Shown: positions 24,597-52,301 of the stretch, one piece after another | Numbering within the stretch: the first letter of the stretch is position 1 | Layout of the letters: each line of letters begins with the position of its first letter | Origin: Tubulanus polymorphus | Lineage: Eukaryota > Animalia > Nemertea | Direction of reading: 5' to 3' | Assembly: GCF_964204645.1 (NCBI RefSeq) | Contig: NC_134026.1 | Location: forward strand, 21,734,150 to 21,798,149 | Length of the DNA stretch: 64,000 nucleotides | Notes under the pieces: generated by a model | Told to the model about the DNA's origin: nothing | The model's database searches: none | What the model saw: the letters and a program-made list of their open reading frames with translations, nothing else | Position numbers and translations under genes: made by a program

Positions 24597-27500
24597 ATGA
24601 AAATGATGATGATGAGTTTCGTAGCCTTACAAATATCATTATACACAATAATCGCTTTGAATTCGAAAAGAACTGATGCCGCTTTTGAGATTCCCAATTT
24701 GGACGATAAACACTTTGAAGTTGACGGAGATTTAGTTTTGGGCGTTTTATCGTGGATCCATTACAGCGACGAGAGAAACGGATGCTCCGAGAAAGCGTTT
24801 TTACCAACGGGAATCGCGTGGACTGAAATGTTTAAATTTGTCGTAAATGAAATAAACAATAATGCCACGATTTTACCAAATATAACGCTGGGATTGGACA
24901 TCTACGATGAATGTATGAGTACCCGAATCGCTGCCGGTCGAGCAATGCAACTACTGCACCGAGCTGGAACATTTCAGGATACCGCTTCAAATTTTATGTC
25001 ACGAAAGCACCTCGTCGGGGTTATTGGGGGTGTTTTTTCGTCAACGGCTGTCGCCATATCCAGGATCTTCACTCCGTTTGAACTACCGCAGTTAAGTATG
25101 TCGGCGACTTCGGCCGAACTCGATTCTCGATTTTATTTCCCGTATTTTCTACGCTTACCGCCGTCAGATGCCGCACAGACGATCGTCATCGTAGATCTCA
25201 TTCGATATTTTGGTTGGAAATATTTTGCAATTCTCTATCGCGACGACAGTTACGGAATCAACGCCATGCAGATGATCGTGCATCTTACGCGAAAATTACC
25301 GGCCGTTTGTGTCGCTTATAGTAAAGCAATAAGCGACGACAACATCGCAGAAGACACGAGGACGATTGTAAAACAATTAATCAAAGACGGAAGAGTCCGA
25401 GTCGTCGTTACATTTCTATATTCGACGGCCGCATCTGGTTTATTAAGAGCTGTTAATGACATAACAAAGACGAACTATTTCACTTTTATATTTAGCGATT
25501 CAATCGAACCGGCAGCGTTGGATGCCTTTGGAAATTCGCTCGGCGCATTACGTATAGGCGTAGAGTTTCAGTTTAAAGCCGAAGATTATTTCTTTGACAT
25601 CTACGAGAAATACACATACAAAAATCTGTCGACGAATAATCCTTGGAAACACCTGTATATGGAGCGAATTTTTAACTGCACGTGGGTACCATCAAAATTA
25701 TCAATGTGTCAGCAATTCGTGGACACACCGTTTATCAAAAGTCTAATGGGACGGTCGGTGTTCTTTACTTACAGTAGGGCACATGATACAGTTTTGACTT
25801 ACGCAATGGCCTTACATAAACTGATTGAAACGAAATGTCCAGATCTTTTTTCACATTTCAATAAAACGCTAGCAAAAATGTGCGTCACGACTAAACATTT
25901 GTTACCGTACCTATACAATGTTTCATTCGACGGCAAAACAGGTCACATTTTCTTTAATGATATAGGTAACGGAATGAAGCCTTATAACATAGACCAATGG
26001 CAGTTTACTGAAGGAAAATTTAAACTGGTTGAAATCGGAAATTATGACCTATCCACCAAAATGGTATCAATCAACAAACGCTTGGTAATGTGGTATAATT
26101 ACACGCGAAAAGGAACTGGTGGAAAGTTTTTGGTGATTCCCTCGAAAACACCGAAGTCGACGTGCAGCGACCCGTGCAAGCCAATCGAATACGTTCAAAC
26201 ATTGGAGTCAAAATGCTGCTGGGAATGCAATAGATGCCGGAACAACGAATACATCGACATGCACATCACGAAAGGAAACCCGTGCATAGCATGTCCGCTG
26301 TACATGTGGCCCAACCCTGATGACTCCAGGAGCTGCAGAAAACTATCTCCGCAATATCTAAACGTGGAGCACCCGATTGGAATCGGTTTGTGCTTCGCGG
26401 CTGTTGTTGGTATGATAATAACTTGTCTGGTGACAGGTATCTTGGTCAAATACCGCCGAAACCGACTGGTGAAAGCGTGCAGCCTGGCACTTAGTGTATG
26501 CACTTTAATGGGAATTCTCTCTAGTTTTCTGGTGGTGTGTTTACTGATGATAAGACCGGAACGATTTGTATGTTGGCTGCATCGGTTCGGTTTTGCCATC
26601 TCGTACACGGTCGTTTATACCCCTCTTCTGGTAAAGAGTACGCGCATGTATCGCATCTTTTGGGCTGGTAAACGCGGTATCTCGAAACTGAAATATATCA
26701 GCAACTTGTCACAAATGATCGTCACATCTATTGTATTAATACTGCAAGTAAGTAATCTCCACAATGCGCATTCTAGTTCAAATAGAATTAGCTAAGTTTT
26801 ATATAGAATGATTTCTAAAGCGAGACACTTTTGAATTACCAGGAAAAGGTTTAGATATCTTAAGCAATAATTGTGATTTGCGTGTAATTCAATAGGACTT
26901 CGAGGTATGAGTAATTGGAAAAGTAGGCTTTCAGATCAGAGGTCGAGAGGTCGAGACACCACTCATCACCACAAGTAATTTTTTTTCCTAATAAATGGGG
27001 GAGAATGAACACCAACCAGAAAACAATAATGTTAATGAAAATCAATATTATTGCCAATATTGTAAAAAATACATCGATAAATCCCAAAAATCACGACATG
27101 AAAAAACTGCAAATCATATAAAAAATGTAATAGATTTTGAAACACTAGATAATACAAATGAAAGAAAAGAACGATTAGATGATATGAATGTGGATGAAAT
27201 AAAATGTGAAGTTTGTGATGAATTTATAACAAAAAGGAATTATAATAGACATCTCGAAACAGCAAAACACCATCAAAATTTGAGTAATTATGTTTTAGGA
27301 AAAGATTATTTTGATGATAAACCTCAAAAAGTAAAAAAAAACAACTTCAAAAACTAAATCCATTTCAAATAAACCTTACATGGAAAATGTTAGAAATTAT
27401 ATTGATTCACTAGAAATAAAAGATACAATTGAAATTTTAGAAACATTACATAGTAAAATTGGTCCTGCAGCTATTATATTTAGATTTTTCAAAGGTACAA

Positions 27501-30500
27501 CAATAGAAGATTATAGTACATTTAATGAAATAATAGAAAAAATACTAGATTTGATAACAGATGTTGAATATCCAAAAATTAGTATCTCTGGGAAAGTAAG
27601 TTTTATGAAGTCAGAAGAAAAAATGGATTATAATATTCAAACACTCTCTGAAGAAATAATTTCAAAAACGCAAATAAAAGAGAAGTTAGAAAAAATATTT
27701 AATGAATTTAAACGTCATATTGAAGAAAGATATTTTGAGGGTTCTGGCTTAACATTGAATGAAATTATATATTTAGATTTAAATGTTTATAATACAAAAA
27801 GAAATAAAACATCAAAAAGTAATAAAATGTTTAAAAATGATTCAAACTTTACAACAGAAAAGGATATTAAAGCATCATCTTATATTAAATTACCATTTAC
27901 AACAAAAGCAGTAATAAATATTCAAAATGAAGATAATAAATGTTTTCTATGGTCAATTATTAGTTGCTTACATCCAACACAGGAAAATGTTTGTAGAATA
28001 ACATATTACCGGAAATATGAAACATTATATAAAATTGATCAATATCCAATAACTGTAAAAATGATTCCTAAAATAGAAATAGTTAATAATTTAAAAATAA
28101 ATGTATTCGAATTAATGCAATTACCAAAGACAAAAGGTGAAAATATTAAAGATTATACATTGGAAGCTTTATATTTAACAGAATATTATGATGATGAAAA
28201 TGCTATAGATTTGTTATATTATAAAAAAGATGAAAATGAACATTATATGTCGTTAAAACAAATTGATTTATTCTTTAGAACAGAAAGTGATCACCATAAT
28301 AAAATTTATCTATGTAGAAAATGTTTATCTAAATTTATGACTGAGAATACATTATTAAAACATAAAGAATTATGTGATAATAAAGATTTTTGTAAATTAA
28401 TAATGCCAACAGAAAAAGATTATAAATTGAAATTTACTAATCATAAATTTAAGAATATTGTTCCATTTGTAATTTATGGGGATTTTGAATCGTTGAATAA
28501 AGAATTAACTGATCAAGATAGAAAAGAAATATATAACAAAAAGCAATTATTAAAATCAATGGATAAAGGAAATGAATTAAATGAAGACACAATACAAGAC
28601 CCACCAATTCTAAATACAATCAAAAAAGTTCATCAAAGAGCTGCTGCTTATGGAATTTATATAAAATCAAATTATCCTGAATTATATGAAAGTCAATATA
28701 TTTCTTTTAGAGGTGAAGATGTAGTTAATGATTTTTGTAACAAAATGATTGAATTAGAAAGTGATTTTGCAAAATTATTAAACAAAAATGAAAGAATAGT
28801 TATGACAAAAGAAGATGAAATTGATTTTAATTATGCAACTCATTGTTGTTATTGTGAAAAACGTTTTTATTCATTTGATAAAAAAGTTAGAGATCATGAT
28901 CATTTAAATTCAAAATATCGTGGAGCTGCTCATGAAGATTGTAATTTACAAGCTAAAAAAGTAAATTTCGTTCCAATATTATTTCATAATTTATCAGGCT
29001 ATGATACCCATCTATTTATAAAACAATTATCGGGAAAATTGGGTGCATTTAATCAAGAAATAGAAGAATATAATGCTATGAATGATGTAAATGTAAGAAA
29101 ATATGATTTTAAACTATTAGCTAAAACATCTGAAAATTATATTTCATTTCAATTTGGTTGCATTAGATTTTTAGATTCTTATAGATTTCAAGTTCATTAG
29201 ACAATTTATCAAAAAGTTTAGTTGATAATGATTTTATAATAACTCGATATTATTATCAAAATGAACAAGATTTTAAATTATTGAGATATAAAGGTGCAAT
29301 TCCTTATTCATTTTATAAAACACACAATGATTTTAATGTAACAGAATTATTAAAAGATCAATTTTATGATCAATCAAAAGAGGAGTATGTGAAAGATGAA
29401 GTGTTTAATAGAACATTAAATATTTGGAACCATTTTAAGATGAAAAATCATGGTGAATTAGTTGATTTATATTTAAAATCAGATGTTATGATATTGGCTG
29501 ACATATTTGAAAAATTTAGAGAAGTTAATTTGAATCATTTTAATGTTGATCCTTGTTATTGCTACTCTAGTCCTGGTTTACCCTGGCAATGTGGTTTAAA
29601 ATATACAAATGTAGAATTAGATTTATTAAAAGAACCAGACATGGTTTTATTATTTGAAAAATCAATTAGAGGTGGAATTAGTGGTGTTATGGGAGATTGG
29701 TATTTTAAAGCAAATGATGAATATAAATTATTATATATTGACGCCAATAATTTATATGGGCAATGATGCAACCTCAACCACATAAAAATTTTATATTAAC
29801 AGAAGTTGAAAATGATGATAAAACTGATTGGGAAAGCGCAATTATGAGTTTAAAAGATGAAGCACCAATTGGTTATTTCTTTGTAGTTGATTTAGAATAT
29901 CCTGAAAATATAAAGTTTAAAACAAGAAACTTACCTTATTGCCCAGAACATTTAACTGTAGATGATAGTTATTTAAGTGAATACCAGAAGAAAATAAAAC
30001 CGAAAGATCATGTTTTACAGAAAAATTAATACTTACTCAAAATAATAAATACAATTATATCGTTCATTATAGAATGTTAAAATTTTATCTAAAACAAGGA
30101 ATGAAATTAAAGAAAGTACATAGATATATTGAATTTAATCAATCGAAGTGGTTAGAAAAATATTCTAATTTAACATCCATTTAACTGTGGATTTCCATTA
30201 ATAGCCAAAAATACGGACAGTTACATACTAAAAATCAAGACAAATGACATAACAAAAGACTTAAAAACATTAAAACATCATTTTGATTTTAGCAATTATC
30301 CCAAAGATCACGAACTATTTAGTAATGATAATAAAAAGATTCCTGGTAAATTTAAAGATGAATTAGGGGGTGATGAAATGATTGAAATTGTTGGGATAAG
30401 AAGTAAAATGTATAGTTATAGAACAAAAGATCATGAAGCTAAAAAGTTAAAAGGAATAACAAAACATGTGGTTGATAAACATATAGAATTTCAAGATTAT

Positions 30501-33500
30501 ATAAAGTGTTTATATAAATCAATTGTAATGAAACATAAAATGAATTGTTTAAAATCAGAAGATCATGAGATGTACATTAATGAAGTTGAAAAAACTAGTT
30601 TGAATCCATTTGATGATAAAAGGCATATTTCAGATGATGGTATAAAAACATTACCTTATGGCCATTAATCATTAATATTTCTATGAAATTGTTTCATTAT
30701 GAATAAATCATTATCTTCTGAATCATTAACTTCTGAATCATCATCTTCTAATTCTTCATCTTCTAAAAGTTCTATATTTTGTTCATTAATACATTCAATT
30801 AAATATCTATAACTTTCAATCATTAGATGTTCTTCATTTTCATCTGATTGTTTTTCTATAATTTCTTCAGGTTCTTCCATTTCATTTTTCTCATTTAAAT
30901 AACGTGTTATATTGTTCCACATTTCATCTCGCTCTCTTTGTTTCTTTTTGTTTGTTAATTCATCAAATTGAATTATAATATCTATGTTTAAATAATTTAC
31001 AATCTAATTTAAAAAGAATTCATAATTAATTGAATCTGTTATTCTATTTTCCAAATGATACATTAATATTTGTTTGAATATTTTTTTTATATTTTCCATA
31101 TCTTCTTCTGTTAATTTAGGTTTTTCATAATAACCATTAAATAATAAATATAAATACATTTTCTTTTGTTTTGTGTTAAATGTTGATGGAATAATTGTTT
31201 TTATAATATCTTTTTTAGTTATTTCACCATTTTTATTTTCTATCATTTTCATTTTTTCAAGCCATTGCATATATTCTGGTGTATGATCTTCTATAGAAAA
31301 TATTTTAAAAATTTCATCTAGATAATTTAATTTTGGTTCTATGAGAAAATCTCTAGTTTTTTCTTCACCCCATAAATTCCTTAGCTATTCACAATCAACA
31401 CAAAATTGCACAGGACCTTCTTGTCTTAAGGTCGCATAATAACATTGTGGGCATTTTTGTTTATAATTTCTTGGTAATAGATCTTCATTAAGCTCTTGGT
31501 ATTTACTTACGTTTTCTTTATGTTTTATTGTTCTATTATGTAGATTTGAATTACTTGCTGTAATAATCAATTTACAATATTTACAATAATATGTTTTTCT
31601 TGTTAATTCATTATATTGTTTTTCTAACTTTTCAACTGTTTCTTTATTATCTGGTCACGTTTTCTCATATTTCATTTTTTCTAATATTTTATTTTTTCTT
31701 TCATTGAATTCTTCTTCAAATTTATTAGAAATTTTATCCATATGTGCTTTACGAAATTGATGTTTCTCCCAATCTTCTATATTTTCAGGTCTATATTTTA
31801 TTCGACATTGCTCACAGAGATAATCTTTTATATTATCCTTATCATAGAATAAGAAAGGTCTTTTCCAAATAACTTCAGATTCAACTTCAACAGAATTACT
31901 ATTACTTTCATTACTATCAACATTAGCCGTTGCGCCATTAATTTTACACTTCTCTGAATGTTTTTTAACATAATTTCTTGAGAATAATTTATTACATTTT
32001 GGGCAGTTTAGTTTAGGGGGTTTATAATTTTCTTCATGTTTTTTCATATGTCGAGCCATATTACTTTTTCTTAGAAGTTCACCACTAATTTCACATGCTA
32101 TCTTCTCATCCATTTATTAGGGAAAAAAATTACTTGTGGTGATGAGTGGTAATTTTTTTTATGTTATAAATAATGGTAGAATTAAAAGAATACAGAATAT
32201 TTGTTGATTCTAGAAGACTTACAAATTATAAATCACATAATTTACTAGTTCAATTAGATAGAGAATTTAAGAATTGTGTTGATTTGAAATTAGTAGATAT
32301 AAGTTTATGTAACTCATTTTACAATATATCAGATAAAACTGATGAACATAGAAGCCTTTTTATTTTTGATAAACTTGGTAGTAAAATGTTTCAACTTATG
32401 ATTACACCAGGATTATATAATTTAGAAACATTAGCGCAAGAAATTAATAGAAAAGCTCGGATTGGATTAGGTAATGGTGATTCTAAATTTAATATTAAAT
32501 TCATAAAAAGTGAGAGCTCTAATAAAATTAAAGTAAAGTTTGATGATGAAAATATTAATCATAATGAAGAAGTGAATATTGCTTCATTTTCAAGAAGACA
32601 TGCTTACATGGTAAAAAAAAACCTTTTGCTAAACTGTTAGGAATTCCTCCAGATAAGCTTATTGTTGGAAACATATACGGTATATCAAATTTAATACCTT
32701 TTACACATTTTTATATTTATTGCAATTTAATTGATCCTACAAAAACATTTGAAGCAACTAAAAATATAACTTGTAATTCTAGTATACTAAATATTTTACC
32801 ATTAAAAATGTTAAACAATTTGGAACGCAAATAAATTATAATTTAGCTGAATGTGATTTTAAACCTTGTATTCCACATATCAATAATTTTAAATTAGAAA
32901 TAAGAAATCATAATGGTTATTCAATTGATTTGAATAACATTCCTGTGATATATGAATTAGTTATAAGATGTAGAGAGTAATTTTTTTATTATATAAATGA
33001 ATATAACTGTTGGACCGAGTATATGTTTTGGATTTGATTTTAAACGTGAGAAAGAAATGAAATTTAACATTAATGATGTAATTACACATATCAAAAATAT
33101 TGCATTTTCTAATGAAACAACATTTGAGTATGAAACAACAATAGATAAAGAAACTTTAAATGTAGAAAAGATTACTAATTTAATTAGAGAATCTTTAAGA
33201 TTTTATGAATTAGATGACGATTTTATCATTATTTCTAAAATGGAAAATACATTTAATACATATGAAGTTACTTTTACTCGAGATGAATATAATATATATA
33301 AAGTAAAATCTAATATGAAATATTGGCAGAATCAATTAAATTTTGCTGTTCATTGTGCAACAACTGGTTGTGGTGTAAGTTGGCATGAACACTTGAAAAA
33401 TTTGAAATATTCTGATTTAAAATTCATTCATACAATATTTAGATTTCACACATATTTTCAAATCAGAATAATATTAAATGAATTAGAATGCCCTTTACCT

Positions 33501-36500
33501 GGATCGAAATATTTTAAAGAATTGGATAATAATATTAATCTATCTATGTTTTATAATATGTAATGAATTTAATATAAATATTAATTCCGATTTTAGAGCG
33601 CATGGTAGATTACATGGTGTTGGTGAACAGTATGAAATAAAAAGAATTGATTATCTGCATAGAATTGGAGCTTATCATAATTATAGAATTGATAATAATA
33701 ATGGATGGATTAATTTTATTGAATCTTATAGTGAAGGATTTACAAAACCTGGTATACAAAGAATAAATCAATCAATTAGAACTTATTTGATATGTATTTT
33801 AGGTGCGCAAGTTGAAACAAGATCACCAATAGTTGGAAATAATAGTACTTCATTTGATGCGCAGAAACAATTTAAAATATTATTTGAAGATTCCATTCAT
33901 AATGATAAAAATAGATCGATTCCAGAAAACATTGTAAGATATCAAAATTATTTAGATAAATCTCATGTAAGACTAAATTATTGTATAGGTCCTAATCTAT
34001 TAATTATTTCTAATGATTTAGTATTAAAGATGGGAAATATAATTGGTTATAATAATCTAATTAAAACTGCAACAATAAATAATTCAATTGGATTAAATGA
34101 TATAAATAAAAAGATTATTACTACTCCAAAATTAATGGAAGGTGAAAAAAATATTCAATCAACAGAAACTAAAACTAAAAATATTAAATTGCATAATGAT
34201 TCTAAAATAAAAGATTACAATACATCAGAAAATATAAAAACTGATAATATTCAACATGATATAATTAAAACTGATAATGATAATAAATTCCATGAAAATA
34301 CTAAATTAGCTTTAACTTGTATAGGAATTGTTATAGGAGGAATATTATATTTTAAATTTTAATTTTTTTATTATATAAATGGATGTAGAAGGTGGAGAAG
34401 ATATTGGAATGGATAATTTTGATGAGCCTGGCATAACTGAAGAACAACAACCTGATTTTAGTGAAACAAGTTTTAATGATGGTAATGAGCCAGAATATAA
34501 TAATAATTTAAATATGCCTGATTATATTAAAAATGCAGAATCACAATTAAATCCTGAAAATTTAGACCCAGATTTAGTAAAACAAGATTTAGATAATTTA
34601 AACACAATACCTAAATTAAAACATATAATTGAAAATTCTGAATTTAACATAAATGATGAAGACGTTGGACCTTTAGCATATAAATTAAAATTTTTAGATA
34701 ATGGTAAATGGTATTATCATTTGAAAGGTGATTATTATATTGATATCACTTATAAAAATCAAAACAAAATATTAGCAGAATCAACTTTAGAAAAATTAGA
34801 ACCAGGTAGAATTAAAAGAATTAGTAATAGTAATGGTAATGTAATAACTGATGTTATAAAACAAGAATTAACTGTTAATGATATAGACGTGTTTAAACAA
34901 AGAATTAATGAGTTATTTGACAAAATCAAAAAGAACTCAGAAACAGATACAACTTCTGAACAGAATAAACTTCCAAAACTAGTAAACTTAAATCAAATAA
35001 AGTTCTAATTGAAAAACTTTTACCGAATGGATTAAATGATGCAACAGATCAAGAATTAGAAGATTTAAATAATATATTTTCTGTTGAAGCAATTATAGAA
35101 ATTAAAAGTATAAGACTTGCATCTGATAAAATTGCGCATGATAAAAGTATAAGAGATTTTAAAATTAGAACTTTAGAAAAAGAATTAACTGATAAAAATA
35201 AAGAAATAGAACAATTAAAGTCTGATTTAGATCATCAAGTAATTGATGAAATAGAATATAGGCAAAAAAAATTACGTTTAGAAAAAGAAAAAGATGATTT
35301 AGAATATAACATAGAATTACAAAAAGAAGTAATTAAATTATTATTAAAATCATATGATTATAATATTAATAGATTAAAAGTTATTTTTAAAGATTTATTT
35401 ATAAAACCAAATTCTGAAATATCATTGAAAGATAGAATAAAGTTATTATTTAAATTAGAAGGAATAACAATTCTTTCAATTCTAACAGCTGTAACTATGT
35501 TATTTACAACAATTGGTTTAGCAATATCAAATTCTTTGAAATCTACTCCTACTCCCAATAAACCGGATAAACCCCCGAATGATAATAATTCTATACAAGA
35601 TAAAGTTAAGGATGGTTTAAAGAAATTAGCAAAATATTTATGGGAACTATCTAAAAAATCTGCTGCAGCTTTACCAGGAATTATTGCATCAATTGTTGGT
35701 TTTATATTGAAATCTGCTTGGAATATTCTTAACTTTGCTGCTGAACATATTATTTTATTTTTAATTACAGTTGTAAGTGCTATCATTTTTGGGTTAGTGA
35801 ATATGATATCAAAAAGATATCAAGAAAAAATAATAAAAAATAAATAATTAATTTTTTTGTTAAATAAATGAGTGGGAGTTATATAAGTCCTTCTAAGATT
35901 TCTAGAATATCTAAGGCTATTAAAGCAGAAAGATCACATCATATAATTACACATAATCCTTCAAATATTAATCCCAATGAAACTTTATATGTTAGAATTC
36001 CTAGATTAACACAAAATACTTTTTATGTTCCAAATAGTATTTATTTATCAGCTGATATAAAAGTAACTGGTCATGATAATAATTATGTTGTTGATAATGT
36101 TGGGAGATATTTGATTAAAAAATTAACTATAAAGATTGGTCCAGAAACAGTTTTCTCATTAGATGATTATAATTTATTTATGCATTATAAAGATTTATGG
36201 TTAACTAAAGAAAATAGAAAAAATATGATATTTCAAGACATTCAATCGGAAAACCATAATAAATTAAGATCAGGAGCTAATGACGCAATAGTAACTCGTA
36301 CCGCAGATAATTTGATAAAAAAGATTTATGGAAGTAAATATCAAATTCCATTAGATTTTGAATTGATAAGTAATAATGCACCTTTATATAAATATGTAAT
36401 TCAAGAAGATATTATGTTTGAAATAACATTTGCTCCTGTAAATGAAATTGTATTGTCTAGAAATTGTATTTGTTAAAGACATGGGTTATAAATTATCGAA

Positions 36501-39500
36501 TATATGTTTAGAATATGACACAATAACTAATGAAAATATTGCTAGCACAATTCAAACTCAATACAATCAAGGATTTTCATTATTATATGATTATATTGAT
36601 AAATTTAAAACTGTAACTATTAATGCAAATGATGAAATAATGAGAATATTAACTTCCCAAGAAGATCTATTAAAGGTATATTAATATTTTTACTATTGCA
36701 ACATATTCTAATGGTGTAATAAAAGTAGATAATTATTATAATCCTGAAATAACAAAAGTAGAAATAACTATCGAAGGTATAGCAAATAAAATATTTTGTC
36801 AGGGAATGAGAATGATAGATCAGTGGCCAGAAATAAGAAAACATTTTATGAATGAAAAAGTAAAATCATTTGAAAATTGTAATATTAATCAAATTGATTA
36901 TTATACCGGCATGCATTATGGTTAGATTTTAGAACAACAGAGGATAATTCATTACATGGTTCTGGAAAAAAATTACAAAACACTAAAGATGGAATACAAT
37001 TATTCATGACAAAGAAAAAAGGAAGCCTAAATTTCAAAATGCATATTTATATTATATCTGACGCACAATTAAATATTGTAAATTCACAATTAGATAGTAT
37101 TCAATATAAATAATACTTTTAAATGGATTGATGTTTTACCAAAATTGATAGAAGGATATAATAATTCTTATCATTCTTCTATTGGAATGAAACCTACTGA
37201 TGCTAGAAAACCTGAAAATGCTGAAATTGTTTGGAATAATTTATATGGAGCATTTCTTGTCGATGATTTTGGTGAACCTAAATTTAAAGTTGGTCAAAAT
37301 GTTAGAATTTCTAAGTATAAAAAGATATTTGACAAGGGATACGATCGAAATTTTACTAGGGAAATATATAAAATAAAAAAGGTAATAACAACAAAACCAT
37401 ATGTCTATAAATTAGAAGATTTAGATGGTGAAGAAGTTGATGGGTATTTTTATGAAGAAGAATTGAGTTTAACTACTGAAAATCTAGAACAAGAATATAA
37501 AATTGAAAAAGTATTAAAAACAAAAACTATTAAAAGAAAAAAATATTCTTTAGTAAAATGGGTTGGATGGCCAGATAAATTCAATGAATGGATATTATCA
37601 AGTAAAATTAAAAATATATGAATGAATAAGGAATTATTTATATTTGAGCCTCATAATATGTTAATTTCTGGTGTAACAAATTGTGGAAAAACTTATTTTA
37701 TGTTAAATTTATTAGAGACTTTTTATAAAAACTATTTTGATAATATAGTATTATTTTGTCCAACATATGAATTTAATCAAACTTATGATAGAAATATTAC
37801 TAGAAATAGTAAATTTATTACATTAGATCCTAAAACAGTAAAAGAAAATTTAGATAATTGTATTAAAATAGCAATAGATATTTATAAAGGATCAAATACA
37901 TTATTCATTATAGATGATTGCGCAAATTTACATGATTCAAAAGTGAGAGAAAGTGAGTTATGTTACTTAGCTTTTTCTGGGAGACATTTTGGGATAACAA
38001 CTTGGGTTTTAAATCAAAAATATAATTCAATTGTTAAAGATTTTAGAGAAAACATTAGATTTTTAGTTTTATTCTACAATAAAGATAGAAAATCGATGAA
38101 AAATGCACTTGAGGAAAATGATATTATTCCACATGATTTACATAATGAATATATGGATAAGTTGAAAAATATTAAAAGATCAAAATTACTATTTAGATTA
38201 CAACACCCATTTAGATATGAATTTATTTAAATTCAACTGGCTTGTTAATCTAGTATATTTTTAGTTACATTCTAGTTGAATTCTAGTTATTAGTAGTTGG
38301 AACAAAAATCAACTAGATTTAACAATATTTCAACTAGCTTGTTAATCTAGTTTAATTCTAGTTACATTCTAGTTGAATTCTAGTTGTAAGTAGTTGGAAC
38401 AAAAATCAACTAGATTTAACAAGAAATAAACAAAAACAACAATATTTCAACTAGCTTGTTAATCTAGTTGAATTCTAGTTACATTCTAGTTGAATTCTGG
38501 TTGCAACAACAAAACTAACTTATTTGTTATATAAATGGTAGGTGAAAAGAAAATAAAATCTAAAAATGGTGATGTTCCAATTGAAAAAACTTTAGATGAT
38601 TTAGGAATAACAGAAACAAAATTAACTCCAGATGATGGTGCTTTGAATAATGTAACAACAAATAATAATTATGAATATTATCTTTATTGTAAACATCAAT
38701 TAGAAATATTAATAGCATCTGGAAAATGTAAAAATTTTATTGGTAAAAATTTAACTTATAATGAATTAGATACAATGAAATCAGATGAAATTATTAGATT
38801 ATTTAAGATTTATGAAACCGCGAGAACAGCTAGAATTAATGACGCGATATCAGAAAATGTAGTGAAAGGTTATAGTAAATTATGTAATTATATGCTGCCA
38901 ATTCAAGATGAAAATAGATTATATGCTGATTTAGAAAATGATTATTTAGTTATGACTGAATTAAATAAATGGATTGGAGATTTATCATTTCAATTAGGTG
39001 GATTTATGACATTATTATCAACTGGAATTATAACATTTTCAAATATTGAAAGTAAAAATATTTCTATAATAAATGAACAAGGTGGAAGAAGTGAAGAAAA
39101 ATCCGAGATCACAGAAACAAAATGAATGGTCTCGACAATTAGGAATTAAATCACAAGAATTTAAAAAAGCTAAAAAAGAAGGAATAAATAATGAAAATTT
39201 TAATAATAGTGAAAATATTGTTAGTTCTACTCCTTCTGGTAATAGAATATTTGATAAATATTTATATTTTACAGTTGGATTTGTAATTGTATTCATTTTG
39301 ATTGGGTGTAATTGGTATAAGAAATCAAATAAAATTCATGATATTAATAATTCTGAAACAACTGCTATCAAAAATGAAAATAAATCTGAAATTCCAAAAT
39401 TGACAATAAAAAAATGGATTAATATTTTAGAAAAAAAGCAAAAAAAATCATGTTTTTAATCAATTGAATATTAATTGAATATCTCACTACTTTTGTTAAT

Positions 39501-42500
39501 CTATACGGAGCAATTAAATTGTCCAGATAAGTCATTTCGGATTCTAGATATTCATTATTTTTATTAATTTATTTTTTTAAATTTAATCAACAATTTCTAA
39601 ATCATGATGGCCATCTTCATTTTTTCCATGATAGATTATTTTAATCCTTCTAAATCTTTTAATTCCTCTATACTCAATGAAACCCATTTATCAGGTAAAA
39701 ATACTTTAAATTCTCGCGATGTACTAACATTGCAGTAGCTTAAATTAGCTGATACTTTCTCTCCATATTTAGTTTTTATCTTTTCTAATTTCAATATTTT
39801 ATGTTCAATTTCTTTTGTAACATCAACTAACTTTTTTATTTCAAATTGTTTTTTTTGTTGGTTTTATTCTGTTATTTATTGTTGCTAAGAATCTCCCATT
39901 TATAAGGAAAACAAATTATTTGTGGTGATGAGTGGGGATTACTTCCCCTTGTATAAACAAGCACGCTATTAACCGTTCTCACCCAAGCCTCACGGCATCT
40001 ATTTATCGGGGCACAGTCGAAGTTTTAAGAAATTTGGGGAATTATGAGATTTGGCGATTGGGTAGATGATACAGTCTTCGACTGGTCTAATTTAAAAAAA
40101 ATTGTCAACTTGTGACCGACTTCGATTCACTTTTGCCTCTAAGCTGGTCTGCAACTTCATTGCCTCCATGGTTGAAGAAAGAGCTCTTCTGATGTCTGCT
40201 TCATCATGAGCATATCGTGTAGCCAGCCGGCCCGGTCCCGGGGCCCGGTTTGGCTGTCACTCGATATCCTAGACTTGAGTCTGGGTTGAAGTAGACATTG
40301 TCATTTAAATAACTTATTCATGTTATTCTGTATGAATTACCCGTGTGTCTTGTATTTTGTATTTTCTTAGTTTAAAATTTGTAACTTTATTGAATTTTAT
40401 CCCGGAATTTCAATGAAATAAGGATCAATAAAGTATTGAATTGAATTGTCACCTTATACACATGCCATCAGTGGACGCGGAGCCGTATATGACAGCTATG
40501 CTATTATAAATTGCTAATCTCATGAAACCTGCATACCCCTAATATCGAACATATTTTCTAAAACATTTGAATATTATATGTTTACACGTTTTTATATAGA
40601 CCGCTTGTAGCCGCCGATGAAATTCACACCGGCCCTACTCAGATCGTAGATAGCTTCGTCATTCCACTAGCATCCCCATGACAGGGTCTGACTTTTATAT
40701 CAGACTTCCAAATCGTGTATACATCCGCCATTTAACCGAATAATCCGATTTACTTATCATTTCTTTTTATGCCTGCCGCTCCTGATATAATCATACATCA
40801 TTTACTATTACAATACGTCTTCTCATGATATTCAATGCAATATAACATTCCGACGTTCAAATGGAGGTCATTATATAATCACAGGGAGCCATTCTACATC
40901 TTTATCAATAATATTTTGCCAAATAGCTTGTATGTGTACACATAAACCTGTGACGTTTTGCACATCGATTTACGGTTGTCGTTTGTAAAATGACGCTGAA
41001 TGGTTAGCATTGTTAAGGTTTCATAATGGTAACGTTTTATAAGGCGTCAAAAAAATTACTTGTGGTGATGAGTGGTGTCTCGACCTCTCGACCTCTGATC
41101 TGAAAGCCTACTTTTCCAATTACTGGTATGATTATGTTATATAAGTATGTACATTATCACTTATGACAGATAAGCGTAAATTACTGTTTCATTTAATACG
41201 CTTACAGTGTACTCTCACTAATCAGACTCATCAATTTGTAGTGGATTATGCCATTTATAAGAGTTGTGTACCCTCTACAATCCACCCAGGATCCCCCTGC
41301 CAAAATGTTTTTTGATAGTGTGAGGGACATTGTGATCGAATGTATCTTATTTTGATTATTGACTGAATTTCTTCAGTTTTTAATCAAGTTTTTCCTTTGG
41401 TATATGTTAATCCAACCGATCCATCATTTCACAAACCTTGGATAACTCCTTGTATTGTCACAGCAATTAAAACAAAAAACAGCCTCTATAGGAAACTTGT
41501 TCGAACTCGTTCTGATAAAATAAAAACCAAGTATAATTCGTACCAAAATCTCATTTAAAAGCTTATTAACAAAGCTGAATCTGATTATTATTCTGAAAAG
41601 TTACTTGCTGCTGGAAATGATATGAAGAAAAAGTGGAATCTGTTGAACACAATTTTAGGGAAACACTCATTCAAAACTACCAAACTCCTTTACCTCCGAT
41701 CAACGTATAGCACCCTGACATTTCCGCCTTGCAAGTATAGCACCCTGAGATTTCCGCCTCGCAAGCCCAGGGTAACTACGTAAAAAATCCTTAAGTCGAC
41801 GATCAGGAAGCAACGACGAGAAAGCGTTCTTAAAACTTCAAACTCAAACTTAACTTAAATTTCACTTTATTTTCTTGGATATATCGGAGAGACGAGGCTG
41901 GACATCCAACCCGCTCAAAAGCTACAACTCGAATCTCTGATTTCTTTCAACAAATTTTCCACCAGGATACTATTACATAAGACACCAAGGGTGGCAGAGA
42001 CCAGAAGGCAGTTATCAAAACAATACAAACTGACTGACACTTCAAGTACATTTCTAAAACAAACAAACAGTCCGACACTCCAAAACTGATTGCCATCCTG
42101 CCCCCTTAGTAACATCGATGAAAATAAGACAATATTTGTAAAATAAGAAATAGAATTCATAACTTGACCTAAAAATGCTCTGTTAATTTAGACTAAATTT
42201 AGTTAAATATCTACGGTGTTATATTCTCCCATTGCATCTCCTTCAACTTTTGCATGTAATGCAAAAGTTGAGTACATTATGTAAAAATACATTCTTATTG
42301 GTATATCATTATAAACTGATGATTAATAGAATATGTATAAAATGCTCTGGGTTTGCAATTTAACTTATTTGAGTTACAATTAGAATACAATGAACAAACA
42401 CATTTACGTTGTTTGAGGAAATTAACTATGGTAGAAGCAGTAAAGATGTATTTCATAATATGATATATATGATTTTGCTTTCTAGATTATTCCTTAAAAA

Positions 42501-45500
42501 TTAACAATACAATCATTTTAAAAGGGTAGGGTTACCAGTCGTCCCTGTAGCACGGAATGACTATAAGTTATTAAAAAGGTTTTTTTTGTAGATGAAATGT
42601 ACTAAACCCACCACCATTGATGAATGATATATATATGCTAATATGGTTACATTATGCTAAAATGGAATATCTATGAATACAAATACTTAAAGAAGACACA
42701 AAACGTTCAGATCAATTACGTGACAATACCAAAACAATGAAATTACATAAATGACACATAGTCTATCCTAGGTTTTAAAATAAATCATTCTTCTCTTCTT
42801 ATGTGATGCAGAAAGGGAATCAGCAGACGTTTACTGAATAATCCTTTTATTTCGATCATTACGTATATACTTTTATTTTTACCGCAACTCTTGTGTATAT
42901 ATTCATATCATTAAATTTAACTTCCTATCAATCCCACATATTTTAATATTCATATAATTCTCTTTTTATCTGCTGTGACATACAGCTAGTCTAATCTTAC
43001 ATTGTCATTCTTTTTCCAATCGATCTCAATTAACATTAATCATGCTCGTAGACGTGTACTAAGCAATTAATAGTTAGTTTTCATACATATGATATTGGCA
43101 AATAAATTCAACTATGTACTAAATAATTTCTTCATTGTGCTAGCGGAGGTGAGCAAAACACAATAACTCCACTAAATACATTTATTTTCTATAGCCGTTT
43201 TGAGCGTCTTTTCTTCGATTTTCTGACGCTTTCAGACGGTAGGCGCGCTGTCCCAGAATCTGTACTGTTGGGACAGAGATTTAAACTGCTCATGATCTGC
43301 ATCGAGCGATAAACTTGTTGTTCGAGTGCAGGAATACGAACGCACATTCCTGTGTATTTCTTTTCGAGCTCTTGGTTTTCGAATTTTAGCCGGTTATTTT
43401 CTGTGATCGTATTTCGAATAAAATTTTCCTTTTTGGCTGTTTGCGAATTTGAAGTTTCTAACCACGGCGCAACGTTTAAAACGGTATTTTCAATGGTGCA
43501 CTGAGAACTGGCATCACATAAAGTCTTTTCAAATGGCAATAAATCGCATTGAATGCAAATATCCTTTATCCGAAACTTCGAGTTGAGTTTGAACGCTTAC
43601 GTCTCGGAGCCATGGATCCTCAAGCGCATCATGCCAAAAGTCTGACGGTTGATCACGATTTGTTGATGATATCTGACACGATTGTTCCGAATTTCGATAT
43701 TCAACAGATTTCAGTTTTTCATTCGTGACACGAAGCTGATTTTCCAAGCTATGAATTTTCTGTTCTAACTGGCTGACTTCAAAACGCGATTCTTTCCAAC
43801 GATTGTAATTGTCCATACGTATTTTGTCCCGATTTCGTTGTTTTTCGGATTTCCGACGAATAAATCTTGTTTCTCTTCTGGGAAATTTTGAGAATTGAAC
43901 TGGACAAAATCTAGCGTAATGTCCGATTCCAGAACAAAGATCACACACAATTTTGATTGATTTACCGTAACAGTGCGCATCAGTTCGATGTCCTTTTTGC
44001 CTCCATTCCGGATGTGAATTCCAACGTATTGTCATCTTGAAGCTGGGGAACTTAGCGACAGATAGTTCAGCACTCACTTTAGCTCGAGGACAGATACCTA
44101 GGTTTTTCTTTATCGTGCCCGGGTTCTCCACCAATTATAGCACCCTGACATTTCCGCCTTGCAAGTATAGCACCCTGAGATTTTCGCCTCGCAAGCCCAG
44201 GGTAACTACGTAAAAAATCCTTAAGTCGACGATCAGGAAGCAACGACGAGAATGCGTTCTTAAAACTTCAAACTCAAACTTAACTTAAATTTCACTTTAT
44301 TTTCTTGGATATATCGGAGAGACGAGGCTGGACATCCAACCCGCTCAAAAGCTACAACTCGAATCTCTGATTTCTTCCAACAAATTTTCTACCAGGATAC
44401 TATTACATAAGACACCAAGGGTGGCAGAGACCAGAAGGCAGTTATCAAAACAATACAAACTGACTGACACTTCAAGTACATTTCTAAAACAAACAAACAG
44501 TCCGACACTCCAAAACTGATTGTCATCCTGCCCCCTTAGTAACATCGATGAAAATAAGACAATATTTGTAAAATAAGAAATAGAATTCATAACTTGACCT
44601 AAAAATGCTCTGTTAATTTAGACTAAATTTAGTTAAATATCTACGGTGTTATAAATGCATTCTTCCTGGTGATACAAATATTGCCAACGAGTTCAACAAT
44701 TTTTTTTAAATATTGGTGAAAAGCTTGCTAGTCAAATCCCCGATACAGGGCAATCTTTTCATCAATATATGAATAATCGTGTCAATGAAAATATCTTTTT
44801 TTCTCCCTACCTCGCCCAATGAAATAAGTGATGTTTTTTCGGGTCTTCCCTCAAAAAAGAGTGCCGGTGTTGATGGTTTTAGTATTTTTATCATTAAACA
44901 AGTAATTGATACCGTTAAGTTCCCTCTATCCCACATCTTTAACCGTAGTCCTCAGACGGGAATAGTCCCCAACGATCTCAAAATTGCTAAAGTTTGTCCT
45001 TTGTTTAAATCAGGAGCCCCTTATTCTTCTGATAATTACCACCCGATTTCTTTGCTTCCTAGCTTCTCAAAAATTCTGGAAAAATTGGTTTACAACAGAT
45101 TAGTTTCATTTTATAACAAACAGGATATTGTAATCCCCAACCAGTTTGGTTTTCGTCCTAAGCATTCAATTGCTTTGGCACTAACCAAGGTCGTTGACAA
45201 TCTTACTGAAGCCCTAGAAAAGAAAGTTATTTCTATAGGATTATTCTTGGACCTTTCGAAGGCATTCGATACTGTTAACCATTCAATGTTGCTAAAGAAA
45301 CTCGAGTTTTATGGTATCCGGGGGGTTTGTCATGATTGGTTCAAAAGTTATTTGACTGATAGGAGTCAAGTAGTTAGTTATGATAATACTACATCATCCC
45401 CATTAAAGGTACTAATTGGTGTATCGCAGGGTTCCATTTTAATTACTCCTTATTTTATACATGAACGGTTGCGTTAATGCATCCAAGTTACTCCAATTTA

Positions 45501-47731: not shown

Positions 47732-49368
47732 ATCGCACGTACGACCTAGGTGTGCGAAATTGAACTGACTCCCGTGGCTATGGTGGCTGATTCAGCCCAT
47801 AATTGAAAATACAGATCTATGCAAATCTATATGAACCTCTGTATACGGCTAAAGACATGATAAACGATTTTTTACATTTTGGTTTTCTCTCGCGAGCATT
47901 CGAAAAGTCGGTTTTTTTCGCACGAGAAAACAAAAGATTGGCCAATGCAATGTAAAAGATTTCTTATCTAGCTTCAGCCGTTTAGAAAAATTGTTCAAAC
48001 CAAAGCGTTTTGTATTTTTGTGCGATAGAACAAAAAGTTTGGAAAGCAAAAGGTGGGTCAATGTAAACATTTGTTATCGTGCCTCTATAGCTGTACAGAA
48101 CAATTTCCTAGTAAGGCCCAAATCAGCCACCATACGCAAGAGCACACTGAAAACCAACGAACTATCATTTGGTATAGATGATAACTCGATTTTATTTTAG
48201 AATCTATTTGTTGGTAAACTCATGGTCTTAGGCCTACACTATCACAATACAAATGCAGTTAATATATTGTAAAACGTACCCAAAGATCGATGTAAATGTT
48301 TATGCAATTGCATTTGTCAGTGATAATTTTGAAATTACCGCCTCGTAGATGGAGGGGACATCGAATAATGTGTGTACAGAACTTTAATATTGGACATATT
48401 GTTTCAAATGACCTTATAAAAATGAAACCGTAAAAACGAGTTTGCTATCTTCGTTGTTTGTCTCCTCTTCATTATATGCTGATGCCGTTTTGTGACGTAG
48501 TCTTATGGAGTTCATATGTACATGTATAACAGTAATATTTGTAACTTGATATTAGTAACTTGAATGCGCTTAGATGTAATGTTCGTATGAAATAATAACT
48601 AATAAATGTACTTACTGGATGTTTCAGTTTTGCAATGTATCGAACAGTGGACATCATTGATGATTTAAATATGTGTTGTGTTTGTAGCGTAAATCAGCAT
48701 TTTGTGATGTATCTTTTGAATAAAGTATGAATATGGTGATGCATGAACAGGTAAGTTTATCGTACCTTTTTTGGAGCGCGCATTTCCATTACTATGGCAA
48801 CGAATCGTGTAGTATCATAGAAAATAGTCAATGCCGACAATTAAACAAAATTATTTAAATCGTGCCTGTTTTTTAGAATTAATCTATCCAATGGAAATCA
48901 TGGGCAACGTTGGAAATCTAGCCGCATGTGGAGACCGGATCATCCACCAAGGATAATTACTCGAGACCATATGGTGCCCGTGGAGAACAAGCAACAGAAC
49001 CGGACGCATGTACAAATGCAGTTTAAGGAGAAAAGGGTGATGATTTTGTTGACCGGGGGGGGGGGGGGGCTAATCGGGATGTTGATTTTGCTATTTGCAT
49101 TATTCCATCGTAGATACTTAAATCCCGCACCCAAGCTTAAAACAAATATACAATCAATTTTGATTAAGCAATGGAATGCCAGTAGAGACAATCTAACCAC
49201 CGCGTATAGAATTTATTACTTTGACGACTTATTTTCACTGCTGAAAGCGCATTACCGCTGCAAAGCGAGCTGTTATTACGCACATCATTTCAGATAAAGC
49301 GATGACAACGTATTGTCGATTTGAATTTTCTTCTTTACCACAAATTTTCTACCGACTTCTTGAAAATC

Positions 49369-52301
49369 ATGACGAGCTTCGTAGCCTTAGAAATATCATT
49401 ATTTACGATATTGATATTGTATCATCCAGACAGGTCCGGTGCCGTTTTGAAGATTCCCGATTTGGACGATAAACACTTTGAAGTTGACGGAGATTTAGTT
49501 TTGGGCGTTTTATCGTGGATCCATTACAGCGACGAGAGAAACGGATGTTCCGAGAAAGCATTTTTAGCAACGGGAATCGCGTGGACTGAAATGTTTAAAT
49601 TTGTCGTAAATGAAATAAACAATAATGCCACGATTTTACCAAATATAACACTGGGATTGGACATCTACGATGAATGTATGAGTACTCGAATCGCTGCCGG
49701 TCGAGCAATGCAACTACTGCACCGAGCTGGAACATTTCAGGATACCGCTTCAAATTTTACGTCACAAAAGCACCTCGTCGGTGTTATTGGGGGCATTGTG
49801 TCGTCAACGGCTGTCGCTATATCCAGGATCTTCACTCCGTTTGAACTACCGCAGTTAAGTATGTCGGCGACATCGGCCGAACTCGATTCTCGATTTCATT
49901 TCCCGTATTTTCTACGCTTACCGCCGTCAGATGCCGCACAGACGATCGTCATCGTAGATCTCATTCGATATTTTGGTTGGAAATATTTTGCAATTCTCTA
50001 TCGCGACGACAGTTACGGAATCAACGCCATGCAGATGATCATGCGTCTAACCCGAAAATTACCGGATGTTTGTATCGCTTACAGTAAAGCAATAAGCGAC
50101 GACAACATCGCAGAAGACACGAGGACGATTGTAAAACACTTAATCAAAGACGGAAGAGTCCGAGTCGTCGTAACATTTCTATATTCGGCGGCCGCATCTG
50201 GTTTATTAAGAGCCGTTAATGACATAACGCGCACGAACTATTTCACTTTCATATTTAGCGATTCAATCGTCCCGTTGGGCACCTATGAAAATGCAATAGG
50301 TGCATTGAGTATAGAGGTAGAATTCGACTCTAAAGGCGAAGATCATTTCTTTGACATCTACGAAAAATACACTTACAAAAATCTGTCGGCGAATAATCCT
50401 TGGAAACACCAGTATATGGAGCGTATGTTTAACTGTACGTGGGTACCGTCAAAATTATCTAAGTGTCATCAATTCGTGGATACGCCGTTTAGCGAAAGCC
50501 TGATACGAAGAAGGTCGGGATTCTTTACTTACAGTATGGCACATGATACAGTTTTGACTTACGCAACGGCCTTACATAAACTGATTGAAACGAAATGTCC
50601 AGATCTTTTTTCACATTTCAATAAAACGCTCGCAAAAATGTGCATTACGACTAAACATCTGTTACCGTACCTATACACTGTTTCATTCGACGGCAAAACC
50701 GGTCACATTGACTTTGATAAGAATGGTAACGGAATGTCCCCGTATCAAATAAATCAATGGCAGTTTACTGATGGAAAATTTAATATGCGTACAATCGGCA
50801 ATTATGACCAGTTCACCAAAAAAGTGTCCTTTAACAATAACTTGGTAATGTGGTATAATTACACGCGAAAAGGAACTGGCGGAAAATTTTTGGTGATCCC
50901 CTCGAAAATACAGAAGTCGACGTGCAGCGACCCGTGCAAGCCCACCGAATACGTTCAAACATTGGAGTCAAAATGCTGCTGGGAATGCAATAGATGCCGG
51001 AACAACGAATACATCGACGCGAACATCACAAAAGGAAACCCGTGCATAGCATGTCCGCTGTACATGTGGCCCAACCCTGATGACTCCAGGAGCTGCCGAA
51101 AACTCTCTTCGCAGTTTTTAGACATCGAGCACCCGATTGGAATCGGTTTATGCTTCGCTGCACTTATTGGTATGATACTAACTTGTCTGGTGACAGGTAT
51201 CTTGGTCAAATACCGCCGCAATCGACTGGTGAAAGCGTGCAGCCTGGAACTTAGTATTTTCATTTTAGTGGGAATTCTTTCCTGTTTTCTGGTGGTGTGT
51301 TTACTGATGATGAAACCGGAACGATTTGTATGTTGGCTACAGCGTTTCGGTTTTGCCATCCCGTACACAGTCGTTTATACCCCTCTTCTGTTAAAGAGTA
51401 CGCGCATGTATCGCATCTTTTGGGCTGGTAAACGCGGTATCTCGAAACTGAAATATATCAGCAACTTGTCACAAATTATCACCACATCCGTTGTATTAAT
51501 TCTGCAAGTAAGTAGTCTCCATTTTGAGTCCGTAAAAAACATTCCAGTTTCTGTCTAATGTGTTAAGTTTTATATAGAATAATTTTATAAGGCGATTTGA
51601 AAATCTTGAATTACCAAGTTAGATATTTCACGTGATAATTGCGATTTGTGAATAATTCCATTTGATTTCGAGTTACGATTATCATGTATATCCTTATGTG
51701 TAACTGTGCAATATCACTTGACACATAAGCATAAATTGAGCGTCATGAGATGCCACATCCACTTCTAAACATATTTCACAGTTCTTCTTTGACGTTTTCT
51801 GTCTTTCAGGGAATGCTTGTATTGATATCGGCATTAGTTTACCCGCCAGTTCCACGGTTTATCATGCCATTGCTGACGACACCGTATGTTGAACTGATTT
51901 GCGACCTGCCTGTTCCAGCGCTTGTCATACCGCTTTCATTCAACATCCTCATCATTTTCGTCACGGCCGTGCTCGGATTCCTCACAAGGGCGTTACCGGA
52001 TAACTTCAACGAATCGCGTTATATATTTCTGTCAGTGAGCGCTACATTTTTTTTATGGGTCGCTTTTTTGCCGACGTACTTTTCGGCATCAACCGCGGCC
52101 CACAAGGTTATGCTGTTAGCGCTTTCCCTTATTCTAAGTTCTCTTGTCATATTAATATGTATTTTCATTTCTCGTTTGTATGGTTTGTTTTGCATTGACG
52201 GAGATGCGATGACATTTCTGACCATAAATGCTTCATCTGTGGGACAGGCCACCACCTCTAGAAACATTCAAGTCAGTTCGATTTCGCAATTAGAAGTATA
52301 A
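49369..52301 (+). CDS. Class C GPCR paralogue 2; exons 49369-51507 and 51810-52301
   Basis: Same architecture as paralogue 1, with a 302-bp GT-AG intron. The first ATG is at 49369; the ORF-track start at 49321 is TTG. Confidence 0.94.

Follow-up and report, generated by a model that had tools for sequence, protein, structure and literature searches.

Polintons are held to connect the membrane-containing tectiviruses with the membrane-less adenoviruses, and terminal inverted repeats flanked by a 6-bp target-site duplication are a broad feature of these Polinton/Maverick elements. Maverick-Polintons generally carry an A32-like ATPase, no virion has been seen for them, and their group 1 members mostly encode a maturation protease (10.64898/2026.06.19.733378). 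The related adintoviruses were collected by their protease, and membrane-active accessory proteins, namely PLA2X, GasderminX and Cupiennin, have already been described in them (PMC8502044); Macc is a defined capsid-core class of membrane-active proteins (PMC11071296). Here we describe a 14.2-kb Polinton copy at 26910-41124 of a 64,000-nt stretch of the nemertean Tubulanus polymorphus (GCF_964204645.1, contig NC_134026.1, 21,734,150 to 21,798,149, forward strand; hereafter the window), in which two proteins that we call X and Y lie between a putative penton and a putative major capsid protein (MCP). The copy, decayed and incomplete, represents a wider Polinton variant that seems to be little described. 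Its relatives keep a fixed kit of hydrophobic proteins within the capsid module, and that the virion of this lineage holds a lipid membrane inside its capsid, as PRD1 does, seems to us to fall just short of an even chance.

We mapped the module by profiles over 39 related loci. The window's order is penton, X, Y, MCP, integrase half, packaging ATPase, a helical protein (HEL) and a basic protein with a single transmembrane (TM) segment (BTM). The stable set in the relatives comprises penton, X, Y, MCP, ATPase, HEL and BTM together with three further hydrophobic genes, whose products are a hairpin of 75 aa, a 139-aa protein hydrophobic at both ends and a SLATT-like protein with two TM segments. 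The initial annotation had asked about co-occurrence with this MCP type and with absence of a protease, and both are found in the relatives. Among 18 loci with an MCP, X is present in 17 and Y in 16. Sampling is biased, most loci having been found through X; of five loci picked by MCP alone (three from one assembly), four also have X and Y, and the fifth is a 1.9-kb piece with MCP only. No peptidase family was found among 30 unassigned open reading frames (ORFs) of at least 110 aa (14 long relative loci), and the sole peptidase-named match among 24 window pieces was to DUF1796, at E 0.074, on an integrase fragment. Pairwise ratios of non-synonymous to synonymous substitution (dN/dS) were 0.16-0.43 for X (5 pairs), 0.12-0.43 for Y (4 pairs), 0.12-0.38 for HEL (2 pairs) and 0.10-0.29 for two small proteins (4 pairs). 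Every tested gene except BTM stayed below 0.45, and by this measure the genes of the module are under purifying selection. A search of IMG/VR with Y, X, MCP and 139-aa queries returned one weak match (E 1e-4), which was not used.

Protein X gave 1,174 matches among 7,995 candidates scored; the named records are from a bivalve, Mactra antiquata (six records). Topology was read by a hydropathy heuristic from proteins of at least 380 aa that start with M, which kept 117 of 124 X and 82 of 155 Y. A C-terminal hydrophobic tail, with a median of 2 residues beyond it, is present in 109 of the 117 full-length X and an internal hydrophobic segment in none; window X likewise ends in a hydrophobic tail (34303-34359). 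The motif WQNQLNFAVHCATTGCGVS, singled out by the initial annotation, does lie within 32997-33563, and a looser version recurs in 103 of the 117. The absence of an evident signal peptide was also upheld: the four window proteins, 116 of 117 X (all but one) and 82 of 82 Y have no N-terminal hydrophobic segment. Neither family shows a myristoylation pattern (0/117 and 0/82), and the median cysteine count is 4 in X and 0 in Y. Five residues of X (C99, H106, H122, C160 and E162 in L003 numbering, L003 being the closest intact relative) are kept in 113-117 of 117 relatives. A model of X (pTM 0.73, pLDDT 71) is confident over residues 1-357 except 177-215, and continues into a disordered stalk and a tail helix. 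It had no Foldseek match at E <=0.001 in BFVD or PDB, which does not imply a novel fold, and no chain at Z >=5 among 48,161 in VIA, where the rows fell mostly over the tail helix. ESM Atlas offered no usable feature match for X or for Y residues 220-485. No Pfam family was assigned to any of 35 X members, and none consistently across 25 Y members.

The placement of X and Y between penton and MCP stands, and the lengths first proposed for them (about 450 and 490 aa) do not, being read-through estimates over two frames each: the frame changes within 33487-33563 in X and within 34969-35008 in Y. Intact close relatives have an X of 439-442 aa and a Y of 448-485 aa. The first ~80 codons of the window X frame are 32-35% identical to a separate 118-126-aa gene of the relatives (E 5e-11 to 6e-9), against a best E of only 0.08 to the N-terminus of the relatives' X; judged from these alignments, the window X ORF is a fusion with the neighbouring gene. 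Among the genomic-read rows listed, no strong loose read ends mark the fusion junction, unlike the integrase deletion described below, and given those read ends the fusion may be common within the species. A strong hydrophobic stretch that opens the 33487 frame was rejected as a TM segment: it is out of frame, and homology to X begins at 33556.

Protein Y is an equally large family, with 1,306 matches at E <=0.001, 588 of them at <=1e-10. In Y, an acidic disordered N-terminus with an ETSF motif leads into an antiparallel hairpin and a hydrophobic helix, and beyond a proline linker come an amphipathic helix and two further hydrophobic ones; in the window, three hydrophobic stretches (35470-35526, 35662-35718 and 35749-35805) accompany the amphipathic helix. 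The internal hydrophobic helix is present in 82 of 82 full-length members and the C-terminal one in 75. The hydrophobic segments are thus conserved family-wide, and this conservation contradicts a host-cargo reading. Short motifs recur in the N-terminal 260 residues more often than in shuffles: ETSF in 32 of 82 (shuffle mean 0.25), NPx[FY] in 21 (2.5) and [ED]x[IVMF][EP][LM] in 56 (10); RxxR and PPxY are not enriched. Window Y has ETSF and lacks NPxY/F.

Class I fusion glycoproteins are marked by a signal peptide, a glycosylated ectodomain and a furin-type cleavage site. Y bears none of these marks, with N-terminal hydrophobic regions in 0 of 82, RxxR at 52 versus 48.8 expected, and sequons at 167 versus 206 expected. 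The initial suggestion of a membrane-penetration or fusion protein survives in its first half: a penetration or translocator role suits Y better than that of a class I fusogen. Its model had no BFVD match at E <=0.001, and ESM Atlas structure matches stayed below a TM-score by query of 0.5. Matches in VIA were set aside as generic hairpins confined to residues 241-358, the C-terminal hydrophobic part being barely covered. Profiles of X, Y, HEL, MCP and the 75-aa and 139-aa proteins, run against PDB sequences, had no match better than E 0.01, and a bluetongue VP5 row (E 2.1) was dismissed as coiled-coil noise. Gasdermin and PLA2 families did not appear in the Pfam results for 25 Y and 35 X members, and Y showed no similarity to the 139-aa profile.

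A basic single-TM protein and a helical protein had been predicted after the ATPase, and their order is confirmed, although in the window copy the helical protein has no segment that would mark it as a membrane protein. Window HEL has one weakly hydrophobic C-terminal helix; five GC-rich relatives carry an N-terminal hydrophobic one. HEL is found in 15 of 15 relative loci holding the ATPase, even where the HEL-ATPase pair has been relocated and inverted. BTM has a net charge of +12 and one TM segment, and is present in 9 of 11 MCP loci that hold the ATPase.

The three further hydrophobic genes were not detected in the window copy, by a lax search to 39500 and a profile search of the whole window. 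The amphipathic hairpin protein is conserved at 73-81 aa (L003:1733-1960; L012:7292; L036:12850) and might, at a guess, be the adintovirus Cupiennin. The 139-aa protein (L003:2014-2433 and relatives) opens with a conserved hydrophobic peptide rich in Gly/Ala and continues through a helical middle to a C-terminal TM segment, a build that resembles either a fusion subunit in miniature or a type I protein; its gene has been lost from the window copy. From this layout it is a fusion-peptide candidate as good as Y, and its N-terminus could instead be a signal peptide. The SLATT-like protein matches PF18142 at E 2.5e-4 to 0.004, under the cut-off; examples are L023:314-937(-), L027:173-751(-), L036 and L038, some with [LI]YPEL. 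P[TS]AP opens the protein in 4 of 15 loci and [LIV]YPxL is seen in 3 of 15, neither in the window's subclade; we take these motifs to resemble ESCRT late domains.

The initial annotation leaned on the A32-type ATPase as an indicator of a membrane. Because Mavericks generally have an A32-like ATPase, its presence does not settle the question, and this part of the argument falls. We favour an inner membrane because of the number and fixed linkage of TM-strength proteins and the missing protease, and because X is tail-anchored and BTM, a basic helix plus a TM segment, lies behind the ATPase. Since membrane-active adintovirus proteins have already been described as minor capsid-core components, a lipid-containing virion is likely but not shown; the conserved kit makes it the best reading, short of proof. 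X would be inserted post-translationally by its tail, with the globular domain on its flexible stalk serving as an attachment protein or a tethered enzyme; in vaccinia H3, also a tail-anchored protein, the N-terminal domain is exposed on the virion membrane (PMC6336343). At a packaging vertex, HEL and BTM could link the membrane to both the ATPase and the DNA, comparable to P6 and P20/P22 of PRD1, which packages a 14.3-kb terminal-protein genome via P9/P6 on the membrane proteins P20/P22 (PMC4267777). The role of Y would come after uptake, when its amphipathic helix and hydrophobic helices would enter the endosomal membrane; its acidic N-terminus may expose host-sorting motifs.

The window's genes also share a start signal. 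TAAATG stands at 8 of 10 gene starts, compared with 33 of 559 ATGs in the element (binomial p 6e-9), each preceded by a T-run at -7 to -13. Four AT-rich relatives follow this pattern at 19 of 21 starts, and six loci with a GC content of 35-39% do so at 21 of 21: two subclades use TAAATG at 40 of 42 starts, and 29 other loci at 0 of 124. T occupies -11 at 8/8 window, 12/14 L003 and 13/15 L008/L015 starts, and -10 at 5/8, 13/14 and 12/15, respectively. The vaccinia late consensus has TAAAT plus G across the start codon and a T at the tenth base upstream (PMC11980589). AT-richness was rejected as the sole cause, loci of 28-35% GC on other branches having none and L008 and L015, at 36-39% GC, having 12 of 12. 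A host TATA box is also unlikely: RNA polymerase II starting from a TATA-like TAAATG would initiate inside the ORF. The two TAAATG groups are well supported singly and their union is not (support 33/7; 38% of bootstrap trees). A 45-nt motif (CCACTCATCACCACAA...TAAATG) at 26959-26997, 32110-32154, 39896-39940 and 41036-41080 belongs to the terminal repeats and recurs ahead of three gene starts, where it may represent a distinct promoter class.

That the subclade relies on poxvirus-type late transcription from a cytoplasmic helper virus is a tentative reading, to which we give rather less than an even chance; a cytoplasmic helper is the simplest explanation because the element has no RNA polymerase gene. 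Yeast virus-like elements are reportedly possible users of a similar start signal outside the poxviruses. Judged by titles and the starts of abstracts, the literature mentioning both TAAAT and polinton held nothing on this promoter. The most encompassing picture would be an integrating, PRD1-like membrane lineage widespread in marine invertebrates, with anchored X and translocator-like Y as an undescribed entry machine and two branches living as poxvirus-helper virophages, which would use the late transcription and the cytoplasmic membrane factory of a poxvirus-like helper; taken as a whole, we think it unlikely.

Several observations weigh against an inner membrane. The window X tail is marginally hydrophobic (KD19 1.71; about +3.8 on the Hessa scale), window HEL has no TM-strength segment (maximum KD19 1.37), and BTM is poorly conserved, with 11-19% identity to distant relatives and a dN/dS of 0.88 in one pair. 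The Y model is weak (pTM 0.35; as a monomer, an antiparallel hairpin at 242-348), and locus L006 runs MCP-X-integrase with no Y between. X could be an unrecognised enzyme, given its conserved cysteines and histidines. Absence of a protease rests on Pfam and gene tiling. Papillomavirus L2, from a non-enveloped virus, is an inducible TM protein (PMC5744145), and SLATT/holin-like proteins of polisuviruses have been read as serving egress or defence (10.64898/2026.10.13.758929). A virus that assembles in the nucleus has no obvious source of inner membrane, and helper dependence cannot explain the kit because the 29 loci without TAAATG also carry it. The literature examined held no virion, proteome or electron-microscopy data for the lineage.

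The strongest alternative is a non-enveloped particle in which Y and the 75-aa and 139-aa proteins are internal membrane-active capsid proteins freed in the endosome, after the models of adenovirus pVI, papillomavirus L2 or the capsid-core Macc class (PMC11071296), and X, BTM and the SLATT-like protein are non-structural and serve egress. We consider it somewhat unlikely, though close behind the inner membrane. Under either of these two readings, Y is best taken as a penetration protein. The enrichment of ETSF, NPx[FY] and [ED]x[IVMF][EP][LM] near the Y N-terminus suits it, since the NPxY of L2 serves as a SNX17-binding site when a non-enveloped virus enters cells (PMC5744145), as do the known PLA2X, GasderminX and Cupiennin of adintoviruses (PMC8502044); window Y, however, has no NPxY/F. 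X, with its 350-aa globular domain, proline-rich stalk and terminal TM segment, is unlike an internal lytic protein, and between four and six proteins with TM-strength helices have been kept inside the capsid module across deep divergence. Adenovirus pVI, moreover, requires maturation by a protease, and none was found here.

A second possibility, which we rate as decidedly unlikely, is that the proteins remodel host membranes, as a factory, a viroporin or ESCRT-driven budding into a loose wrapper, without being fixed parts of the virion. Tail-anchored proteins have their domain facing the cytosol, which is where X would then sit; the late-domain-like motifs of the SLATT-like protein (P[TS]AP and [LIV]YPxL, at the counts given above) fit as well, and the long helical hairpin of the Y model is tied with ESCRT-III and F-BAR chains among its generic matches. 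Yet those motifs are patchy and missing from the window's own subclade, and strict retention beside MCP, penton and ATPase, with a common start motif, suits structural genes better. It is scarcely credible that these ORFs are cargo from the host, soluble enzymes or artefacts of decay in a single broken copy: most genes are broken in this copy, the X N-terminus is fused and the conserved Cys, His and Glu of X leave an enzyme possible, but the more than a thousand matches of each family include intact, selected and syntenic relatives, with no Pfam family in the X members and none consistent in the Y members searched. The feature is real and conserved, and the direction of the initial annotation towards a membrane-containing virion is reasonable, if unproven.

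The element itself is an AT-rich island of ~23% GC in flanking DNA of 35-40%, delimited by inverted arms and inserted in the manner of an integrase; the arms are perfectly complementary over their 76 nt, with the 6-bp duplication at both sides (Table 1). Its polymerase region matches PF06220 (3e-9), PF02945 (0.005), PF03175 (5e-5) and the POL profile; PF03175 reaches 6e-19 in a relative's polymerase. No Pfam match to an OTU domain appeared in the window pieces or in three relatives' polymerases, for which Pfam may be too insensitive. The MCP matches PF16903 at E 8e-4, and another match reached 1e-3, both under the curated cut-off; its pieces are 65-83% identical to a 415-aa ORF of L003. The remaining integrase half is 79% identical to residues 121-293 of the L003 protein, itself a PF00665 match (1.5e-10). 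Genomic reads from one run under the same species label have loose ends at the integrase deletion junction. Of 18,773 reads placed, 410 are at least 99% alike to the window copy, 7,168 are 95-99% and 11,195 are 90-95% alike; the species therefore holds many diverged copies. Reads that differ in length from the window copy make up 75 of 139 at the X break and 83 of 129 at the Y break, and the breaks are therefore not family-wide.

Table 1. Features of the Polinton copy, in window coordinates.
Feature	Position	Strand	Remarks
Left terminal inverted repeat	26910..26985	+	begins AGTA; GGTATG target-site duplication just before, 26904-26909
Zinc-finger ORF and protein-primed DNA polymerase B with EndoVII-like domain	26995..30668	+	multiple fragments
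Four small ORFs, two with zinc fingers	30665..32113	-	
Putative penton (minor capsid protein)	32173..32980	+	three pieces; from position and homology to relatives
T-run, spacer and TAAATG (example)	32975..32999	+	
~80 codons from the separate 118-126-aa gene of relatives	32997..33236	+	fused in frame to X
Protein X	33237..34362	+	one frame change; ~350-aa conserved globular domain, low-complexity stalk, hydrophobic tail
Protein Y	34379..35847	+	one frame change; acidic disordered N-terminus, coiled-coil hairpin, hydrophobic helices
Putative double jelly-roll MCP	35868..37113	+	four or five pieces
rve integrase, C-terminal half with chromodomain	37094..37621	+	N-terminal half deleted
A32-type packaging ATPase	37622..38230	+	intact; PF04665 5e-13
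Three direct repeats of ~97 nt each	38232..38542	unstranded	between ATPase and helical gene
HEL, helical protein, 196 aa	38535..39125	+	intact
BTM, 128 aa	39073..39459	+	basic N-terminal helix and single TM segment (39259-39315)
Right terminal inverted repeat	41049..41124	-	100% complementary to left arm across 76 nt; then GGTATG
Further T-run and TAAATG starts	26995, 32113(-), 34379, 35868, 38535, 39073, 39899(-)	+ unless marked (-)	

Around and inside the copy, 1.1 kb within the right arm (39950-41036) has host-like GC and no second copy in the window, and a 300-nt direct repeat, 99% alike, lies outside the element at 41706-42005 and 44136-44435. ORFs of 732-745 aa occur at 24597-26795, 49321-51558 and 54859-57060; the first, of 732 aa, ends shortly before the insertion and was read by eye as the N-terminal part of a class C G-protein-coupled receptor, a reading that indicates an animal host. 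Gene content varies among the relatives. L003 carries a deoxynucleoside kinase (L003:10340-10981(-), PF01712 1.7e-31, with a TAAATG start) that the window is without. The replicase at L019:9967-13404(-) does not match PF03175 and carries a helicase-type domain of superfamily 1 (AAA_30 6e-11), a replicase swap beneath the same capsid module. At L023:8441-8982 there is no integrase between the 139-aa gene and the polymerase B gene, and a fibre-like gene (L023:941-2218(-), PF03906 1e-11) adjoins the penton of GC-rich relatives, an arrangement that the window's subclade does not have. Records L036-L039, P0014 and P0018, labelled as bacterial (Anaerolineae, Saprospiraceae, Sulfurimonas, Bartonella), also carry the module, in two of them beside reverse-transcriptase genes; these are probably mis-binned animal DNA.

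An animal lineage in which no protease was detected and a fixed kit of membrane proteins is kept offers a concrete candidate for a membrane-containing form of Polinton, and X and Y, two large unnamed families with more than 1,100 matches each, are offered as candidate entry proteins. With the TAAATG signal, a dependence of animal Polintons on helpers among the large cytoplasmic DNA viruses becomes open to testing; that reading predicts poxvirus-like viruses in the host species. Neither the kit nor TAAATG was reported in the literature found, though the supplements of PMC8502044 and PMC11071296 and the 2026 preprints, available to us in part, may name the genes.

Among known systems, the Maverick-Polintons and adintoviruses (groups 1 and 2) share with this lineage inverted ends, a 6-bp duplication, protein-primed polymerase B, an rve integrase with chromodomain, MCP, penton, A32-like ATPase and integration in animals. 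Membrane-active accessory genes occur in both (labelled PLA2X, GasderminX, Cupiennin and SLATT in PMC8502044). The lineage described here differs in that no adenain-like protease or PLA2 domain was detected and in its larger fixed set of TM proteins. Six motifs of our families are absent from the PMC8502044 supplement text that precedes the sequence compilations, a part that does not cover the GasderminX and Cupiennin sequences. Elements from Octocorallia, Hydrozoa and Bivalvia, whose ATPases group with Aquintoviruses and which lie outside the main Maverick groups (10.64898/2026.06.19.733378), are alike in their marine-invertebrate hosts, and X itself is found in a bivalve; the words 'membrane' and 'promoter' do not occur in that paper. 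The sections of 10.1101/2025.02.07.637071 and PMC11131425 available to us name none of the proteins.

For individual proteins, the hairpin of the type III translocator IpaB matches that of Y at Z 10.5 (root-mean-square deviation 1.4, 104 aligned), tied with many unrelated hairpins and under the Z of ~13 required for helical bundles, so that no homology is shown. IpaB, too, has hydrophobic helices downstream of its coiled-coil hairpin. Papillomavirus L2 combines sorting motifs with an inducible TM segment, a build like that of Y, again with no homology shown. The tectivirus PRD1 resembles the lineage in its ~14-kb linear genome, protein-primed replication and jelly-roll capsid (PMC4267777). It also pairs its packaging ATPase with a helper factor and small TM proteins, to which the window lineage offers gene linkage only. 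PRD1 is not known to have a maturation protease. It differs in its bacterial host and lack of an integrase, and the likeness is architectural only, with no sequence match beyond two weak PHROGs matches among 14 proteins.

Poxvirus mature-virion membrane proteins (H3, L1, A16/G9/J5) resemble X in the tail anchor and large exposed N-terminal domain, and X shares with them, by the hydropathy heuristic, a C-terminal anchor without a signal peptide; a TAAATG that overlaps the start codon, with T upstream, is a further likeness, here to the late promoters. The poxvirus proteins L1, A16 and G9 have an N-myristoylation signal and a cysteine-rich ectodomain, whereas X and Y have no myristoylation pattern, Y is not cysteine-rich and neither has a Pfam match; unlike poxviruses, the window element encodes no RNA polymerase or redox pathway. 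The words 'promoter', 'motif' and 'membrane' do not occur in PMC11296320, on the entomopoxvirus-associated polinton-like viruses. These are likewise small and integrating, are proposed parasites of poxviruses in insects, and differ from the present lineage in encoding a cysteine protease and, mostly, a phospholipase (PMC11296320).

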